Shown one piece after another: positions 38,835 through 62,448 of a stretch of 64,000 bases of DNA (positions are counted from its first letter, which is position 1; each line of letters starts with the position of its first letter). The translations under genes were made by a program, and so were the position numbers. Source of the DNA: a virus (Duplodnaviria > Caudoviricetes); the IMG/VR virus record IMGVR_UViG_3300020048_000002. One strand, 5' to 3'. The notes beneath the pieces were generated by a model, which worked only from the letters and a program-made list of their open reading frames with translations, was not told the origin of the DNA and made no database searches.

Positions 38835-39158
38835 TCAGGAAGCGGGGGAGGCTTCCTTGGCTTCAGGGGCAGCAGGTTGAGGTGCCTGGGGACGTAGAAC
38901 ACGGATGTTCCCCGTCTGAGCCTCGATCTCCACGGGGGTCGTCGGAGAAAGCCCACGGTCCATGAGCACCTTCTCGAACAGGCGGCCACGCTCCTCGTCG
39001 ACTCGATTGGCCGCCACAAGGAGCTTCACCTTGTCCTGCTCCATCTCCAAGAGCCGTTCAGCGATGTCGAACCGAGCAGCACCCAGCTCTTCGAGCTTCT
39101 TGCGCGTCTCGGGGTCGACCGGATCGCTCGGGGTCAGTTTCTTCGTCTCACCACTCAT
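38835..39158 (-). CDS. hypothetical coiled-coil protein
   Basis: GGAG RBS, starts MSGETKK. Confidence 0.65.
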   Translation of the reverse strand: MSGETKKLTPSDPVDPETRKKLEELGAARFDIAERLLEMEQDKVKLLVAANRVDEERGRLFEKVLMDRGLSPTTPVEIEAQTGNIRVLRPQAPQPAAPEAKEASPAS

Positions 39159-39171
39159 TTTTTCTCCGGAC

Positions 39172-39201
39172 GTTGATTTGGAAGGGTCGAGAGTCGTACT
39201 A
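39172..39201 (+). promoter_or_regulatory. conserved promoter, copy 4
   Basis: GTTGATTTGGAAGGGTCGAGAGTCGTACTA. Confidence 0.68.
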
Positions 39202-39218
39202 GGAGGGAGGAATCCCCC

Positions 39219-39515
39219 ATGTACACGATTCAAGAGCTTTCTACAACTTTGGACGATCTCACAGAAGGAGGGCTCTACGCCCTCAACTACGTAGCCAAAA
39301 ACGAGGGGCTCACACCCTTCGTATGGGCCACACCGGATGGTACTGAAAGCGTTATCCTGTTCGTCGGGCTCGATGCTCAGGGTCGAGTCCAGTACTTCGA
39401 CTACGCTCGTACACCGAGCGACACACAGAGAGATGAACAGATCCGCACCTTGGCCACGAAACGAGAGCACACAAGTACACCGAAGAAGCGCCTGTCCACG
39501 ACAGGGTGGAACTAG
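39219..39515 (+). CDS. hypothetical protein
   Basis: GGAGG RBS downstream of promoter copy 4. Confidence 0.65.
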   Translation: MYTIQELSTTLDDLTEGGLYALNYVAKNEGLTPFVWATPDGTESVILFVGLDAQGRVQYFDYARTPSDTQRDEQIRTLATKREHTSTPKKRLSTTGWN

Positions 39516-39838
39516 ACTCGGTGGACTCGCTTCTTCAAGAGGCGTAAAAACGCGGCGAAGAAGTGAGGGTTGAGGTCATTCTTCCGGAGAACTCTGCGAA
39601 ACTCCGGTACAGCCAGGATGGCCTTAGCTGTCAGGTCCGTCGGTGCAAACCTCTTGAGACGACGGAACAGAGCTAGCCCACGAGGGTTGGGGCGGTTCTT
39701 CCAGACCGAGCACAGTCTCCGATGCTTCTGGTATTGCCGGTAAGTGGGGAACCGCTTCTCACATAGGCAAGGGTGCAGGATGAGCGGCGGCCTCGAACCA
39801 GGCTTCCGCCGCCTACCTCCCTTACGTCGTCGTACCAC
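39512..39838 (-). CDS. basic zinc-finger hypothetical protein
   Basis: CLC...HRRLC, resembling the N-terminal motif of the 39883 gene; GGTGTA motif upstream. Confidence 0.55.
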   Translation of the reverse strand: MVRRRKGGRRRKPGSRPPLILHPCLCEKRFPTYRQYQKHRRLCSVWKNRPNPRGLALFRRLKRFAPTDLTAKAILAVPEFRRVLRKNDLNPHFFAAFLRLLKKRVHRV

Positions 39839-39882
39839 GGGGTAGGTCTACACCTTCTGACGTTGGTTGAGTAGACGGCAAG

Positions 39883-41133
39883 TCACGCAAGTAACCCTAG
39901 AAACGATGTGACTCGGCGAAGCACCTCTTCTTCGCACGCCTTCACTTCACTCTCCCATACGATGAGACAGTCGATTCCGATGTCTTGGTAGGCTTCGACG
40001 AGTTCCCGCTCGTGCTCAAAGTTAGCCTTCCCTGTGAACATGCGGGAGTGCCAGTAGTTGCCGAACAGCTCGACTACCTTGGTGACACCGTGCTTCGGTT
40101 TGGAAGAGTCAGGCCCAGGGAGGATGAAGTCCGGGTTCTTGTGGTGCCCTAGTTTTGGAAGCCATCTCCAGAAACCTCCATCTCCCGTGTAAAGAAGAGT
40201 GGGGAAGTGAGCGGCGAACCGCACTTCGAGTTGGTTTGGGGTACCTTTGCCCCCGGCGTTAACCAAAGCCTTGAAAGCGATTTCCGGTACCTGCATAGGA
40301 TGCGGAACGCCGTACTTTTGCATGAAGATAGACCGTAGAGTCTCTTTCCCAATATCCGATCCGAAGTAATGAGCCCCGTAGTGATCAAGCATGGTTTCAA
40401 GCTGCTTCTGTCGCACTTCGGGAAGCATCGAAGTCCATTCAACACCCCATCGCTCCAAGTTCGTCTGGCGAGCCTTCTCATTGACCTCGGGAGAACACGA
40501 AGGGGCGGGGCCACCATACCGTTCAAGATTGGTAGCTTTGATGCGCTCTCGAATCACAGGTGCCGCCAATGCTTCCTCGGTCCCGTATCGCTCTAGGTTT
40601 GTGGCCTTGGTCTTTGAGCGTACCTCGGGCCTTTGGTTCGGGTTCTCAACACCGTACCGCTCAAGGTTTGCCTGGCGGATCTTCGCTTGAACCTCGGGAC
40701 GAGCAAAAGGATTGTCCGCTCCCCTCATTATGGGCCGATAGGGTGCAGATGCCGCTTGAACCCCATCAAAGAGTTTAGACTCGCGGCTAAAGACATTCTC
40801 TGCCCCATACCGCTCAAGGTTTGTGGTCTTCCGCTTGTCTTCCGCACCGGGAACACGAGATGGGTGCGTGACCCCCTCCCCGTACCGTTGCTCCAACGTA
40901 CCGGCAAGACGGGACATCTGAACCTCACCGCGATCCCGTCCCTTCCAAGTCGAGCACACAGACCGGTGCCGCTTCATCTGCGTGAGCGACGTCGTCTCAT
41001 GCCCGCAAAGACACGAAAGGGGTTTCGTGTCACCAATCGTGAGCCGCCATCCCGCACACGCTGCTTTGTGTCGTGAGTTGATGGTGTCGGACTTTGGAAA
41101 ATGTGTCTGACAATGCGGGCATGTGACGGGCAT
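39883..41133 (-). CDS. putative homing endonuclease with TNLERYG repeats
   Basis: About five (T/A)NLER(Y/W)G repeats plus NPDF...VVELFGNYWH...IVWESE nuclease; TTGACT-17-TATCTT promoter 7 nt before the ATG. Confidence 0.75.
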   Translation of the reverse strand: MPVTCPHCQTHFPKSDTINSRHKAACAGWRLTIGDTKPLSCLCGHETTSLTQMKRHRSVCSTWKGRDRGEVQMSRLAGTLEQRYGEGVTHPSRVPGAEDKRKTTNLERYGAENVFSRESKLFDGVQAASAPYRPIMRGADNPFARPEVQAKIRQANLERYGVENPNQRPEVRSKTKATNLERYGTEEALAAPVIRERIKATNLERYGGPAPSCSPEVNEKARQTNLERWGVEWTSMLPEVRQKQLETMLDHYGAHYFGSDIGKETLRSIFMQKYGVPHPMQVPEIAFKALVNAGGKGTPNQLEVRFAAHFPTLLYTGDGGFWRWLPKLGHHKNPDFILPGPDSSKPKHGVTKVVELFGNYWHSRMFTGKANFEHERELVEAYQDIGIDCLIVWESEVKACEEEVLRRVTSFLGLLA

Positions 41134-41201
41134 TAACCGTAAGATACGACCGGCACAAGCAAAAGTCAACCGACTTTATGGGGTTACTACCCCACTACCA
41201 A

Positions 41202-42086
41202 TCAAAGGCCCAAAAACTTCCGGGGAGAGAGGACCCCTCGACCCGAATACGGTCCGAAACTCGACCTTATACCCACACCGTACTTAGGCTGTTGTAGACC
41301 ACGCACGATGTTGACCGTGGCCTTGGCCTTTTCCAGTTGCTTGTCGAACTGGTCGGCGGCGGTTGAGAGCGCCCCTTCGTACTTGCTCGATTTGTCGATG
41401 TCGAGGGACACCCCACCGATCGAGTACGAAAACTCGTCCGCGATCCAGTTGAGCCGTAGGGCTTGAATGGCGTGGATCATGGCCCCGGTGAGCAAGAGAG
41501 TGCGCCATGCCGGGTAACGGGTGGCAAGGTTATCCAGGGTCCCGAAGGGGGTGTACGGGGGTGCTAGGGAGATAGAGTCCAGGGACCTTTCCAGGTACTC
41601 CTTCATCTCCTCGTCCTCCCAGATGTACCCGAAGACTCGGTTGAACTGGTTGATCGTCTCTTCGTGAGCCGGGGGCCTGAAGTGGTAGTTTCGGTCGGGG
41701 CTATTTGAAACGAGCATCCCCGACCGCACGAGGACGAAGTTGTGCCAATCCGCCGCCGTGAGGTCGTACATGTACCGGCGAGACGGGAGTCTCTCGACCG
41801 AGAGAACCGCCACGGGAGTTTCGTGCCCGGCCACCAAAGTACCGACGGAAAGTGTCTCGGCTTCGGCCTTTCGGGTAGGCGTGAGGAACACCCGATGGCC
41901 CCCCGTTAGCACCGAGGAGCCGCGAGTTGTGGTGACTCGAAGAATGACTTCACCCTCTACTTCGGCGCGGTGGACCCTCTCGACTCGTTTCCAAGCGACT
42001 TCCCCGGTGGGAGAAACGGAACGAACCCGAAGAGTGCCCTTAGAGAAGGCCGTTTTTACTCTTTCGCGTTGCGAGTCGGTCAACAT
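41202..42086 (-). CDS. split gene, C-half: 128-aa IntC + C-extein of a probable virion protein
   Basis: Block B TGGHRVF, block F MYDLTAADWHNF, terminal VSN|SPDRNYHFRPP. Confidence 0.85.
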   Translation of the reverse strand: MLTDSQRERVKTAFSKGTLRVRSVSPTGEVAWKRVERVHRAEVEGEVILRVTTTRGSSVLTGGHRVFLTPTRKAEAETLSVGTLVAGHETPVAVLSVERLPSRRYMYDLTAADWHNFVLVRSGMLVSNSPDRNYHFRPPAHEETINQFNRVFGYIWEDEEMKEYLERSLDSISLAPPYTPFGTLDNLATRYPAWRTLLLTGAMIHAIQALRLNWIADEFSYSIGGVSLDIDKSSKYEGALSTAADQFDKQLEKAKATVNIVRGLQQPKYGVGIRSSFGPYSGRGVLSPRKFLGL

Positions 42087-43002
42087 GAAAGTCCTTCTCC
42101 GTCCAAATAATGAAGTCCCACCCCATTAAGGCCGCATAGGTAGAAGCTACACGCAGGCGGACTTGGTGTCGATGTTCAGGCGGTTGTTGCAAGACCCAAC
42201 TCGCCTTGACTTCAATAAGTGTGATACTTTTGTCGTGGTGCGTCACCACAAAATCAGGCAAAATCCAACGACCGTTGGGTAGCTCGACCCGAGGCTCAAA
42301 GGCGTATTCAAGCACGTCGGGATCTCCATCGAGGAGAGCCGCAACCACCCTTTCGTAACTACTCCGTGTCCAAATGCGCGGCGTCGTACACTTTAGAGGT
42401 GTGATCCAAGCCCCACGACCCCACTTCTCGGGACTCTGCACCATCCGTTCTACTTGAGCTTTAGACCGCTCTAAGCGAACATCTTCCCGTTGGTGGTAAG
42501 CTAATAGTGCCGCCCTCTCTTCGGGGCGCTGCCATCGTCGAAGTGCTGCTATATGCCGACGCTCCCGTACTTCGGGACGGAGATTAGCTAATCGAAGTAC
42601 TTCTCGTTCAGCGGTAGACCATATCCGTCCCTGGTGGAAGTCGAAGTCACCCGCATCCCACGCCTGCTTCATTCGCAATGTAAGCCAAGGCTTTTTACGA
42701 CCTTTGCCTTGCCGCCCCACCCTTGCAGCGTTTTCTTGACGATTTCGCTTTGAAGCCAGGTTGCCCGTAGCTCTCGTGCTTCGTTGAATCGCCGCCAAAG
42801 AAAGTCCCGTTAGCTCAACCATACGAGTCCACGGCATTCCTGTGCCATGAAGCTCCGTGATGAGGTCGTGTCGCCGCTCTAGGATCCACTCGGAACCCTT
42901 AGAGGGCCTCCCCTTTTTCGAGAACTGTTCCCACGTCAACCCGTGACGTTCAAGTAAGGGTAGAAGCTCAAGGGGTGCCGCCGATGGCGTCGTAGAGATC
43001 AC
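42040..43002 (-). CDS. free-standing endonuclease (TnsA-N-like PD-(D/E)xK) separating the split intein halves
   Basis: TRSSYER...YAFEP...ILPDF...LIEVKA...WDFIIWTEKD. Confidence 0.78.
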   Translation of the reverse strand: MISTTPSAAPLELLPLLERHGLTWEQFSKKGRPSKGSEWILERRHDLITELHGTGMPWTRMVELTGLSLAAIQRSTRATGNLASKRNRQENAARVGRQGKGRKKPWLTLRMKQAWDAGDFDFHQGRIWSTAEREVLRLANLRPEVRERRHIAALRRWQRPEERAALLAYHQREDVRLERSKAQVERMVQSPEKWGRGAWITPLKCTTPRIWTRSSYERVVAALLDGDPDVLEYAFEPRVELPNGRWILPDFVVTHHDKSITLIEVKASWVLQQPPEHRHQVRLRVASTYAALMGWDFIIWTEKDFHVDRLATRKSKNGLL

Positions 43003-43468
43003 GGAAAGAAACTACCATAATATCCCCATCTACGTCAAGTTCGACTTCTTCCTCTTCCCCGATGCAGTTGTCTCGGGTCAGAATACGGAGCCGTCGAATG
43101 AGGTCCGTCTCGACTGGAGAATACGTTGTCGTCGGGGTGTTCGTTGTCGGGGAGGTCCGATCAAGGATGGCGAACTCTTGGACGACTTGTTGAATAGGGT
43201 CTCCCAAAAGCCCTTGGAAAGTCCACCGAATACGGTACGTGCCAATGTTCGCATCCAGGGGGATGATAAGACTGGCGTAGTACTCCCCTACGGACGGGTT
43301 TTGTGGGGCTCGTTGATTGGAGCCAAGAAGAGCTTCTTGCCCCGTCGTAAAGTCGTAGAGGGCATACGAGATTTGTGCAGCGTTCGCGGGTACACCGTTG
43401 GCGTTCGTAAAAAAGATGGTCAAGTCATTGTGACCAAGTTGTTGACCACGGTAGAATGTAACGCTCAC
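42968..43468 (-). CDS. split gene, N-half: Ig-like N-extein + 32-aa IntN
   Basis: ...RRLRILTRDN|CIGEEEEVELDVDGDIMVVSFRDLYDAIGGTP* resembles intein block A. Confidence 0.82.
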   Translation of the reverse strand: MSVTFYRGQQLGHNDLTIFFTNANGVPANAAQISYALYDFTTGQEALLGSNQRAPQNPSVGEYYASLIIPLDANIGTYRIRWTFQGLLGDPIQQVVQEFAILDRTSPTTNTPTTTYSPVETDLIRRLRILTRDNCIGEEEEVELDVDGDIMVVSFRDLYDAIGGTP

Positions 43469-43477
43469 GATAGCCTC

Positions 43478-44218
43478 TCAGTCCCAGCCCGTGGGGGCAC
43501 AGCCGCAAGGAGGTTCCATAGGAGCCCCAGCTTCCAACACGAAGGGTTCCTCGACTTTGCGGCAAACTCCGTTTTCTACGTAGGTCCAAATAATCATCCA
43601 GTTCCCTGGCTGACCACAGTCACCTAAGTACCCCGTGGCATGGTAGTGCCCGAGGGAAGAAGACGAGGGAGTCCGTCTCGAAGGGCCTCTAAGTTTGCGC
43701 GAACCACCGGGCAAGATCTCGTAGATTGCGTAGGTCACTTCGGGTGGTCCGTAAGGATTCCCACTGGCGTCAGTAATACACAGGGTCAAGTCATTGACTT
43801 GCAGCATGTGCATGTAGGAAAATGTCTTGATCGGCGGTGCGTCGCAAGGACAGGCCGGGTCCGGAGCTTGTCGAACTTCGACATAGGCTTGAAGGTCCCC
43901 GAAACCGGAGAGGGGCATCGGGACGGAGATCCCGATATTCCCAACCCCACGAAGAACTCCGGTCATGTTGTAGGTGGGGGAGAGATCTCCGGAGATGTCC
44001 CCCACCCCAGCCATGTTGCCGCCAAGCAAGACGGAGAAGTCGGCCACCACGGTTCCAACCCCGTAGACCTGGCCGCCCATCAAAAACGAGATGGTAGGAT
44101 CCACAGAAACGGACGATGAGCCGTCCGTATCCCCGCCAACGAAAACCCAGGCGACTAGGGGCGCTAGAACGTCCCCTACGCCATCGAGTGTTCCGTCAAG
44201 GTCAACAAGGGCCATCAA
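43478..44218 (-). CDS. putative virion protein (Gly/Val repeats + Ig-like domain)
   Basis: C-terminal domain resembles the N-extein of 42968-43468. Confidence 0.6.
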   Translation of the reverse strand: MMALVDLDGTLDGVGDVLAPLVAWVFVGGDTDGSSSVSVDPTISFLMGGQVYGVGTVVADFSVLLGGNMAGVGDISGDLSPTYNMTGVLRGVGNIGISVPMPLSGFGDLQAYVEVRQAPDPACPCDAPPIKTFSYMHMLQVNDLTLCITDASGNPYGPPEVTYAIYEILPGGSRKLRGPSRRTPSSSSLGHYHATGYLGDCGQPGNWMIIWTYVENGVCRKVEEPFVLEAGAPMEPPCGCAPTGWD

Positions 44219-44598
44219 ACCTCAGAGGCGATGAGCTGCCCCACTGGGAACCGAACTTGATCGTTGATGGCAACGGTACGGGGAACGGAGAGGAGGTTGA
44301 AGTAAAGCAAGTTACCTCCAACCGACTGATCGTAGAGCCCAAACGCGACAACCGTGCCCCAAGATGCAGCGGCAAGGGGGAACACCACATCCGTCGTGTT
44401 TGACGCGAGCCCGTTCACTGGGCTCGAAAACGTCACGGTCTGACGCGAGTAGCCTCCCCCAGAGACTTCCGTCCCGCCCCCGCTGGCCGTGGGGGCAGCA
44501 GTAAAGAGAGCGGCGTAAATGGTGAGGGGGGATGCAAACGGTGTTTGCCGGAGAGCCGCATTGATGAAGGCGTTGTCTAGGTAGTAGGTCTTAGGCAT
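44215..44598 (-). CDS. small phage tail-associated protein
   Basis: YAALFTAAP...GTEVSGGGYSRQ...FP...WGTV family; paralog of 52404-52805. Confidence 0.72.
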   Translation of the reverse strand: MPKTYYLDNAFINAALRQTPFASPLTIYAALFTAAPTASGGGTEVSGGGYSRQTVTFSSPVNGLASNTTDVVFPLAAASWGTVVAFGLYDQSVGGNLLYFNLLSVPRTVAINDQVRFPVGQLIASEV

Positions 44599-44605
44599 GG
44601 CATCC

Positions 44606-45007
44606 TCAACAATGGGGCTTCATGAACGAGGGCTTCAACCCACCCGTTGCCTGCGCCGACGTTTGGATCACATCGTAATCTTGGCCGACAATCTGCTGGC
44701 CCGCTGGGTACGTGATGATCAGCCGCCAGTAACCGATGGCGTTGGGCCGCCAACGAACGTTGTAGATTCCAGGACTACCTGGCACTTCAACCCAGTAAAT
44801 TCGACCGGAGACGATTTGGGAGTCTGTGATCCCAATCCCCGACACGAGTGGCCACGGCTGAAGTTGGTTCTGGAAAAAGAGCTGGGACGTGATCTGAGCA
44901 ACGTTGAGCCCAAAAACGCGCGTAAATCCGTCAGGCAAGAAGAAGTCCGCCTGATCCAAGACCGTTTGGTTGTTGTCTACGGTTCGCCCGCGTAGGGTAT
45001 TGCTCAC
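44606..45007 (-). CDS. putative virion Ig-like protein
   Basis: PGIYNVRWRPNAIGYWRL; late-type motif upstream. Confidence 0.6.
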   Translation of the reverse strand: MSNTLRGRTVDNNQTVLDQADFFLPDGFTRVFGLNVAQITSQLFFQNQLQPWPLVSGIGITDSQIVSGRIYWVEVPGSPGIYNVRWRPNAIGYWRLIITYPAGQQIVGQDYDVIQTSAQATGGLKPSFMKPHC

Positions 45008-61377: not shown

Positions 61378-62049
61378 TTACATCAACCCCGACTGCTGGC
61401 GGACGGCTTCGCCCCAAGGTGGGGGGGCGTGGGGCTCAAAGGTCGTGTCCGTGAGATCTGCGAAGTCCGGGTAGTCGCTGGTTCGAGTGACGAGAGCGAC
61501 CTCGTAGAGCCATCGCCGGGTGCGGTTCATCATCCGATGACCCAAGTGCGAGACGATCCATCCGTACTCGAACCCAGGCTCAACCCCCGGATTCAACCGA
61601 ACCCAAGTGCCCACGGGGAGCTGAGGCTTCTCTTGCTCGGCTGGCGGTAGCTCCTGCTCTACCCAAGTCGAGATGAGAGCGGGGACGTGCGTAAACCCGC
61701 GTTCCTTCGAGACGTTGATCCGATGGATCCCGTCCTCCACCTCTAGTCGGCCTCTGACTTTGGTTAGCCGAACAGGAGGGAGAGGGTGACCTTGGTCAAA
61801 CGCCTCTTGGAGCTTGTCGGCTCGACCCGGATTCCAGACCGAGGGGATTTGAATCGCCCGCAAAGGGACCACCTCGAACGTCATGTCGTAGTAGCCGCCG
61901 TGGGCAGCCACAGACTCAGCACGGATGTCCGGATCGTTCGTGCGGGCTAGCTGCTTTCGGACAAAGCTCTGATCGACGGGGTAGTGATTCCGCGAAGCCA
62001 CTCGGTTCGGCCTCACGGGCGTTCGCCGGTCGTAGCTGTAGCGATCCAT
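61378..62049 (-). CDS. ParB/Srx-like domain protein with YSYDRR and RVASR tags
   Basis: LPPVRL...VEDGIHRINVS...THVPA. Confidence 0.72.
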   Translation of the reverse strand: MDRYSYDRRTPVRPNRVASRNHYPVDQSFVRKQLARTNDPDIRAESVAAHGGYYDMTFEVVPLRAIQIPSVWNPGRADKLQEAFDQGHPLPPVRLTKVRGRLEVEDGIHRINVSKERGFTHVPALISTWVEQELPPAEQEKPQLPVGTWVRLNPGVEPGFEYGWIVSHLGHRMMNRTRRWLYEVALVTRTSDYPDFADLTDTTFEPHAPPPWGEAVRQQSGLM

Positions 62050-62113
62050 GCCTAGTGAACCCGAAAGGTAGATTTTTGTTGCCCCTTGGCTCACCGTTTT
62101 GTAGGGTCGGATC

Positions 62114-62448
62114 AAACGGGACAAGCCCCGCCCGCAAGGTGGTAAGCGCCGGACCTCCTCGATGGAGGTTGTGCGGTAGAATGGTACACCCGCCGTCCCA
62201 CCGTCAGGGGTGGGCGAGGCCGAGCCTGAACTCTTCGGCTAGTACCCTCTGGTTCCCTCGCCGGATTAGCGTGCCTAGACGCAGGCGAGGGGGCGACCCC
62301 ATGAGGCCCTCGACATCGAGACGAGGGCCACTAAGCCGTCACCTTCGGTTCTCCCGGTCGGGCCGTAGGGACGTAATATCGAACCGGGTCCAGGCCCGAC
62401 TCCCCCCTGCCTTCGTGCAGGACCAAGGAAGTCGGGCCGACGCTTTTT
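62114..62448 (+). ncRNA. putative structured ncRNA 2 (about 330 nt)
   Basis: TTGCCC-17-TAGGGT promoter, at least 7 hairpins, a closing stem, and a terminal hairpin plus TTTTT. Confidence 0.55.

Follow-up and report, generated by a model that had tools for sequence, protein, structure and literature searches.

A probable neck gene of a freshwater phage, fractured by a TnsA-like nuclease gene and very likely rejoined by an atypically split intein

How might a tailed phage obtain a structural protein from a gene that lies in two pieces, each attached to a fragment of an intein and separated by a third reading frame? This question is raised by a 64,000-nt stretch of DNA (IMG/VR record IMGVR_UViG_3300020048_000002; hereafter the window, whose first letter is position 1) from an uncultured freshwater phage of ~311 kb. 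At 41202-43468, on the minus strand, three open reading frames (ORFs) overlap head to tail. An earlier note on this DNA had read them as a probable virion gene carrying an atypically split intein, with a 32-aa N-terminal fragment (IntN) and a 128-aa C-terminal fragment (IntC), broken by a free-standing endonuclease gene, and the coordinates and motifs it gave are all present in the sequence. Our analysis makes it very likely that a class-1 intein, split after its first helix by a TnsA-like gene, joins the two products of a probable phage neck gene by protein trans-splicing; the splicing activity itself we infer from comparison of the locus with its relatives.

The interrupted gene and its alleles

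The first ORF (42968-43468, minus strand, 166 aa) ends ...LRILTRDN/CIGEEEE...IGGTP. Its first 134 residues form the N-extein (43067-43468), an immunoglobulin (Ig)-like β-sandwich with the first helix of the putative adaptor, which ends ...LRILTRDN and whose start is backed by homologues sharing the same MSVTFYRGQQLG beginning. The N-extein is followed by the 32-aa IntN (42971-43066, minus strand), running from Cys1 to GGTP with its stop codon at 42968-42970. The last ORF (41202-42086, minus strand, 294 aa) opens with the 128-aa IntC (41703-42086; MLTDSQ...MLVSN) and continues into the C-extein (41202-41702, 166 aa plus stop), which starts at Ser+1 (SPDRNYHFRPP...) and holds the helical core and C-terminal arm of the putative adaptor. 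As read from the DNA, the junction codons are AAC (Asn134, 43069-43067) and TGC (Cys1, 43066-43064) on the N side, and AAT (last Asn, 41705-41703) and AGC (Ser+1, 41702-41700) on the C side. Between the two halves, in a third frame of the same strand, a free-standing gene for a TnsA-like PD-(D/E)xK endonuclease (42040-43002, up to 320 aa) shares 35 nt with the IntN ORF and 47 nt with the IntC ORF. IntN, the endonuclease gene and IntC together make up an element of 1,364 bp (41703-43066, minus strand). A Shine-Dalgarno box, GGAGAAGG at 42093-42100, lies 6 nt 5' of the IntC ATG at 42086, and the start Met of IntC occupies the same alignment position in ~60 clusters. The intein and nuclease parts each occur in a single copy in a search within the window, and a scan for promoters and terminators inside the element gave nothing persuasive.

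The same three-ORF layout is found in LR745208.1 and in IMG/VR and JGI contigs at 41-77% identity (repeated in loci L002, L003, L005-L007 and L011), and this recurrence shows that the arrangement is not due to chance. Our protein collection contains ~60 clusters of N-fragments and ~60 of C-fragments, and both ORFs are intact in these clusters and in all split loci examined. The window is an assembly from an uncultured metagenome, for which an assembly artefact or chimeric contig might be suspected; we give this explanation an almost negligible probability, since two sequencing runs contain 0.91-0.95 of the words of the stretch, run X5 of another study matches it partly at 100% identity, and the layout recurs in independent GenBank, IMG/VR, JGI and ENA assemblies.

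Contiguous homologues spanning the RDN/SPDRNY junction, on which the earlier note had made its reading depend, indeed exist. The intein-free proteins P0069 and P0088 (297-298 aa) read ...LRILTRDN-NPDRNYHF... and are 84-90% identical to the C-extein, and a contiguous distant homologue, gp319 of Tunturiibacter phage Tunturi_5, reads ...SDE-DPDRNYHFRPP... across the junction; the insertion site lies in a nearly invariant PDRNYHFRPP motif of the host protein. The intein-free kind accounts for ~30 of 41 IMG/VR loci. The closest empty allele comes from run X3, a freshwater metagenome of a study other than that of the best-matching runs. One of its contigs, of 1,299 nt, aligns with 41428-41700 and 43066-43812 with 4 and 7 differences in the two flanks, and skips the 1,365 bases between 41700 and 43066 with one letter in their place. 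On the minus strand its junction is GAC AAC TCC CCC GAC, encoding ...D-N-S-P-D..., so that a sister phage in X3 lacks exactly the 1,364-bp element at 41703-43066 and encodes exactly the predicted spliced product. Run X5 contains pieces of the endonuclease gene at 100% identity and, together with the X3 contig, establishes that both allele types occur in nature. We also observed that the Ser+1 codon is AGC in the window (41700-41702) and TCC in the near-identical X3 allele; the two codons differ at two positions, which may reflect the target of the nuclease or a tract of co-conversion.

A third kind of allele carries an uninterrupted intein. P0040, P0043 and P0076 have a contiguous (cis) mini-intein of ~150-155 aa at the same site. 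The two window pieces are 53% and 50% identical to P0040 with end-to-end coverage, the window IntN aligning with residues 1-32 of the cis mini-inteins, and in alignment A1 the N-fragments stop and the C-fragments start within one short loop of these proteins. A tree of the IntC region, which was a quick tree only, separates the inteins of this site (site a) from those of a second site of the same gene (site b, described below) with a Shimodaira-Hasegawa-like approximate likelihood ratio (SH-aLRT) support of 99, and the three cis forms take no firm position in it relative to the split ones. Proteins with an apparently short IntC (such as P0091, P0116 and P0119) were considered as a canonical or three-piece split and rejected: the full IntC is present in the stop-to-stop reading of L003 and L004, and the short forms arose from gene callers choosing a later Met because the endonuclease ORF overlaps the start of IntC.

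A HINT-fold intein and the case for trans-splicing

An AlphaFold2 model of the cis form (P0040, residues 125-292, from alignment A1) gave a HINT domain with a mean predicted local distance difference test score (pLDDT) of 93.8. In a Foldseek search of this model against the PDB, the best 50 matches are all inteins or bacterial intein-like (BIL) domains, led by VidaL (6vgv; E 3.8e-9, template modelling (TM) scores 0.68/0.77, 19% identity) and followed by the hyperthermophile intein 7oec, Ssp DnaB and Aes123 PolB1; the best solved relatives share 13-20% identity with it. In the model, Cys1 (residue 7) and the N-terminal strands are followed by a helix at 27-34, a loop, and a second helix at 41-49. 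The break in the window falls in this loop, IntN covering the N-terminal strands and helix α1. Natural atypical splits lie either after strand β2 (S1; VidaL and PolB16) or after the first helix (S2; AceL-TerL and GOS-TerL), with an IntN of 15-37 aa (PMC13014065). The position after helix α1 in the model thus makes the window intein an S2-type split of 32/128 aa, in agreement with the atypical split that the earlier note had proposed. Lengths within the family are 30-41 aa for IntN and 123-136 aa for IntC.

The catalytic residues were counted over ~60 clusters that share only 36-70% identity. Cys1 is present in 61/61, and the block B Thr and His, the block F Asp and the terminal Asn each in 60/60; the +1 residue is Ser in 54 and Cys in 6. 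In the window IntC, block B reads LTGGH, block F reads YDLTAADWHNF, and the terminus is Ser-Asn (...LVSN/SPDRNYHF). The penultimate Ser that had been pointed out in the window proves to be the family norm, the 60 clusters having Ser in 50, His in 4, Lys in 3 and other residues in 3. IntC matches Pfam Intein_splicing at E 1.5e-6, under the curated cut-off, and some family members carry a precomputed PF14890 match. Furthermore, pairwise nonsynonymous divergence (dN) of IntN and IntC is 0.13-0.33, the same as in the exteins, and its ratio to synonymous divergence (dN/dS) is 0.05-0.2 where dS is unsaturated.

These data bear on the possibility that the locus is a decaying pseudogene, broken by the endonuclease, in a phage that uses another adaptor. 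Endonuclease genes truncated in some relatives, and a third gene piece that is not adjacent in L047 and L048, would fit such decay; we nevertheless consider it very improbable, because both ORFs are intact throughout the split loci and clusters, the intein and extein parts have equally low dN, and no second adaptor homologue lies within the window, where only a paralogue of the Ig-like domain is found (43520-43825).

The two fragments are also oppositely charged, as the earlier note had proposed. The window IntN contains 10 D/E against 1 R (net charge -9) and IntC has a net charge of +6, and in the family the means are -7.4 (range -11 to -5) for IntN and +2.6 for IntC. Such opposite charges fit an electrostatic capture of the halves, which would give them a role in assembly.

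The middle ORF might instead be removed as RNA, by a group I or II intron, or be skipped by the ribosome, with a contiguous precursor then splicing in cis. Free-standing endonuclease genes often sit in phage introns, and, as the cis mini-intein alleles make plain, an uninterrupted form is functional. This explanation is nonetheless scarcely credible: no Rfam match was found at E<=1 in 39000-45000, the IntN ORF ends at a stop codon, IntC starts with a conserved Met behind a good ribosome-binding site (RBS), and the endonuclease ORF, by overlapping both halves, takes up the space that intron ends would need. In one relative, moreover, ~67 kb separates the halves, which are on opposite strands of a single 134,706-bp IMG/VR contig. 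The TnsA-like gene and the IntC/C-extein ORF stand near 129-130 kb on one strand with no N-fragment upstream (L029, 3193-4942), and the N-extein with a 31-aa IntN (...LRDH/CVAGEEVVEV...) lies at 61,653-62,132 on the other (L046, 1501-1992). Provided that this contig is correctly assembled, joining there can take place only at the protein level. Removal of the middle ORF as RNA, the outcome that the earlier note would have taken as refuting it, thus finds little room. In addition, the endonuclease of L004 (4418-4708) has decayed to its last 96 codons and both intein ORFs remain intact, which shows that the split intein persists without a working nuclease.

We therefore favour protein trans-splicing, for which the following scheme is proposed. 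A 1,364-bp selfish element, a class-1 intein cut by a free-standing TnsA-like homing endonuclease gene, interrupts the probable adaptor gene, and two polypeptides are translated separately, IntC and the C-extein from their own RBS and ATG. The acidic 32-aa IntN would then dock into the near-complete, basic 128-aa IntC, probably helped by the opposite charges, and complete the HINT fold. Cys1, the block B Thr and His, the block F Asp, the terminal Asn and Ser+1 would perform the standard trans-splicing reaction, giving a 300-aa adaptor with the sequence ...RDN-SPDRNY... (predicted junction peptide ...ILTRDNSPDRNYHFR...). The endonuclease would have no role in splicing and would presumably spread the element into intein-free or nuclease-free alleles at co-infection.

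Several points weigh against this scheme. The evidence for the HINT fold comes from the model of a cis homologue and not from the window's own halves, and as single sequences the latter score 24-29 bits against Pfam Intein_splicing, under the cut-off of 35.8. The penultimate residue of the window is Ser and not the usual block G His. This His is usual but not obligatory in class-1 inteins, and a residue other than His slows Asn cyclisation in some of them. The saturation of dS makes the dN/dS values rough, the metagenome contig on which the halves are dispersed is incomplete (CheckV 30%) and possibly misassembled, and the run search found no RNA run that contains the stretch. The spliced product is itself a prediction.

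This last point and the penultimate Ser would also fit an arrangement in which the halves associate without splicing, the intein fragments serving as a non-covalent dimerisation module of a two-chain adaptor; even without an intein, the two products of a gene fractured by an endonuclease can make up a functional enzyme, Aeh1 NrdA being an example (cited in PMC2677866). Such an adaptor is improbable, given that residues needed only for catalysis (Cys1, the block B Thr and His, the block F Asp, the Asn and the +1 Ser or Cys) are invariant across ~60 diverged clusters, that the cis alleles must splice or else carry ~155 extra residues within a conserved motif, and that the intein-free X3 allele is the exact spliced sequence.

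The host protein and the endonuclease

What protein, then, would trans-splicing restore? Neither extein matched Pfam or PHROGs, and a Foldseek search of the extein model against the PDB gave nothing at E<=1e-3. That model, of the intein-free P0069 (pLDDT 74.9), starts with a β-sandwich over residues 1-104. Helix 116-128 then runs up to the insertion site, and beyond it come a stretch of low confidence with the invariant PDRNYHFRPP, a helical core (162-261) and a flexible C-terminal arm. An exhaustive VIA-align search matched residues 115-272 of the model with chains of ~180-250 residues from phage portal-tail and neck complexes (Z 8-11.6; for example 9nwi, 9k09, 7wmp, 8jov, 8vb4 and 9lu4, the last being T4 gp13/gp14), the matches comprising Pa223, cyanophage A4, KHP30, GP4, SU10, VP1, the PhiM1 portal-adaptor, T4 gp13/gp14, the phage 812 neck and the P1 connector. 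Superposition on such chains gave Z 9.3-11.6 with a root-mean-square deviation of 2.8-4 over ~100-115 residues, values that for helical domains are no proof of homology. The C-terminal arm, flexible in P0069, is a further point of likeness to the adaptor chains of tailed phages, from which the window protein differs in an extra N-terminal Ig-like domain. A BFVD search with the extein model brought up Bacillus phage G gp165 and otherwise just phage proteins without a name. Tunturi_5 gp319 is annotated as a 'head-tail connector protein', and the gene lies in a virion module, by a Gp80-like gene and genes for virion structural proteins. On the consistent fold matches, the Tunturi_5 annotation and the neighbouring virion genes, a head-to-tail adaptor of the neck is the best, if tentative, reading of the host protein, and the suggestion that the host is a structural gene gains support from it.

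The Ig-like domain has a further relative next to the adaptor gene: the C-terminal part (43520-43825) of the ORF at 43478-44218 is a paralogue of it (29.5% identity over 105 aa, E 9e-7), and an upstream Ig-domain match is also present in most related loci.

The middle ORF was assigned from a match to Pfam Tn7_TnsA-like_N (PF08722) over residues 228-302 (E 8e-7, 30 bits against a cut-off of 26.5), in line with the earlier call of a TnsA-like nuclease in a third frame that overlaps both halves. The N-terminal half of its product is helix-turn-helix-like, the PD-(D/E)xK core (..ILPDF..IEVK..) at the C-terminal end is conserved in L002, L003 and L029, and a phmmer search against solved structures returned nothing. 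Its start is uncertain: GTG at 43002 is backed by N-terminal conservation with L002, and the internal Met chosen by one gene caller would give 260 aa. Every split site-a locus that was examined has the TnsA-like gene between its halves, and all of the intein-free loci lack it. The family is small: an exhaustive protein search gave 164 representatives at E<=1e-3, with 31 full-length relatives at E<=1e-30, and many other TnsA-like representatives are short C-terminal remnants. The remote relatives P0331 and P0345 stand free between unrelated genes, and their flanks contain no intein motifs. A homing nuclease would fit the presence and absence of the gene in near-identical phages, its patchy distribution and its frequent truncated copies; the protein presumably acts as one, and the empty insertion site would be its likely target.

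A second intein site and the neighbouring nuclease gene

The same adaptor gene has a second intein site, site b, in other phages. In L042 (3599-5934; IMGVR_UViG_3300017528_000567) an intein lies at this site (NWIADEF/S...AHN/SYSIGG) and is likewise atypically split, its ~32-aa IntN starting with Ser1. The nuclease gene between its halves belongs to Pfam MTES_1575/DUF559/Vsr and is not TnsA-like, and its IntC is 32-34% identical to that of the window. N-fragments of the site-b type are numerous (P0142, P0156, P0176, P0191 and others). PolB16 has been described as the only known natural cysteine-less atypically split intein (PMC13014065).

In one relative (L047, 1756-4007; L048, 309-3392) the adaptor gene lies in at least three pieces, in the order N-extein with IntN(a), TnsA-like gene, IntC(a) with middle extein and IntN(b), and Vsr-like gene; an unrelated gene follows, and the expected piece, IntC(b) with the C-terminal extein, is not next to the others. 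For such a gene to work, two atypically split inteins orthogonal to each other (Cys1/Ser+1 and Ser1/Ser+1) would have to operate in one cell. In the window, site b is empty (~41420-41440) and has Ser (...NWIADEF-S-YSIGG...) where many intein-free alleles have Asp (ADEFDYSIGG). The site-b intein uses Ser as its +1 nucleophile, and the Ser at the empty site may be the footprint of a lost intein or a homing site ready for one. The X3 and X9 contigs have loose ends at 41428.

On the dispersed halves 67 kb apart, the site-b intein split at the same structural position by a Vsr-like nuclease, and the gene in at least three pieces, one could go further and suppose that this phage lineage has made trans-splicing obligatory, possibly as a timing-sensitive step of neck assembly, and that the loop after helix α1 is a recurrent landing site for unrelated endonuclease genes. 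We regard this wider proposal as rather unlikely and offer it as speculation.

Directly downstream of the adaptor gene, a separate free-standing homing endonuclease gene (39883-41169, minus strand), which is not part of the intein, encodes DUF7487 repeats and a Vsr-like C-terminus (Pfam DUF7487, E 3e-48; phrog_3339, 'homing endonuclease'). Some relatives have it and some lack it, regardless of whether they carry the intein, and run X3 covers it patchily, with loose ends at 39869 and 41218. The N-terminal Cys/His motif of this nuclease recurs, at 37% identity over 48 aa, in a small ORF at 39512-39838.

Relation to known split inteins and significance

Fractured genes were described by Dassa, London, Stoddard, Schueler-Furman and Pietrokovski in 2009, in eight DNA synthesis or repair enzyme hosts and with GIY-YIG or Vsr-like endonucleases, including a terminase locus that has a C-part of 122 residues and is 'fractured at an unusual point' (PMC2677866). 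The window shares with these the fractured arrangement and the oppositely charged fragments, and with the terminase locus the shape of the intein; it differs in its host, a probable virion neck protein, and in its endonuclease, which is TnsA-like and not GIY-YIG or Vsr-like. In the view of the same authors, phage proteins of low conservation make poor refuges for inteins (PMC2677866), whereas the window element sits in the nearly invariant PDRNYHFRPP of a structural protein.

Among individual inteins, AceL-TerL and GOS-TerL, which are of phage origin, have an IntN of 25 and 37 aa and an IntC of 104 and 115 aa (Thiel 2014; Bachmann and Mootz 2015; summarised in PMC11766414 and PMC13014065). Like the window intein (32/128 aa), they are natural, combine a short IntN with a long IntC and break after helix α1 (S2); they sit in the large terminase subunit, the window intein has Cys1/Ser+1 with a penultimate Ser, and the likeness is one of fragment lengths and split position. 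VidaL and PolB16 likewise have the HINT fold and are natural and atypically split, but after strand β2 (S1), with an IntN of 16 and 15 aa, the window being split one element later. An atypical break together with a free-standing nuclease is already published (PMC2677866; S2 splits, PMC13014065), and the literature already records inteins in structural proteins of phages, portal and minor capsid proteins among them. Our literature search found no split intein in a neck or adaptor protein, no TnsA-like nuclease as a fracturing gene, and neither the penultimate-Ser family nor its abundance in huge phages. With good support, the locus adds a widespread case to a mechanism already known and does not represent a novel type of system.

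Natural split inteins with a short IntN are few, namely AceL-TerL, GOS-TerL, VidaL and PolB16 (PMC13014065). They are sought for semisynthetic protein labelling, the short piece being chemically makeable. The family described here, with ~60 clusters for each half, a penultimate Ser, and matched cis and intein-free alleles, provides a comparative set for S2 splits, and it extends the range of gene-fracturing endonucleases to a TnsA-like type. If its halves splice as we infer, a multi-copy structural protein of the virion can depend on protein trans-splicing.

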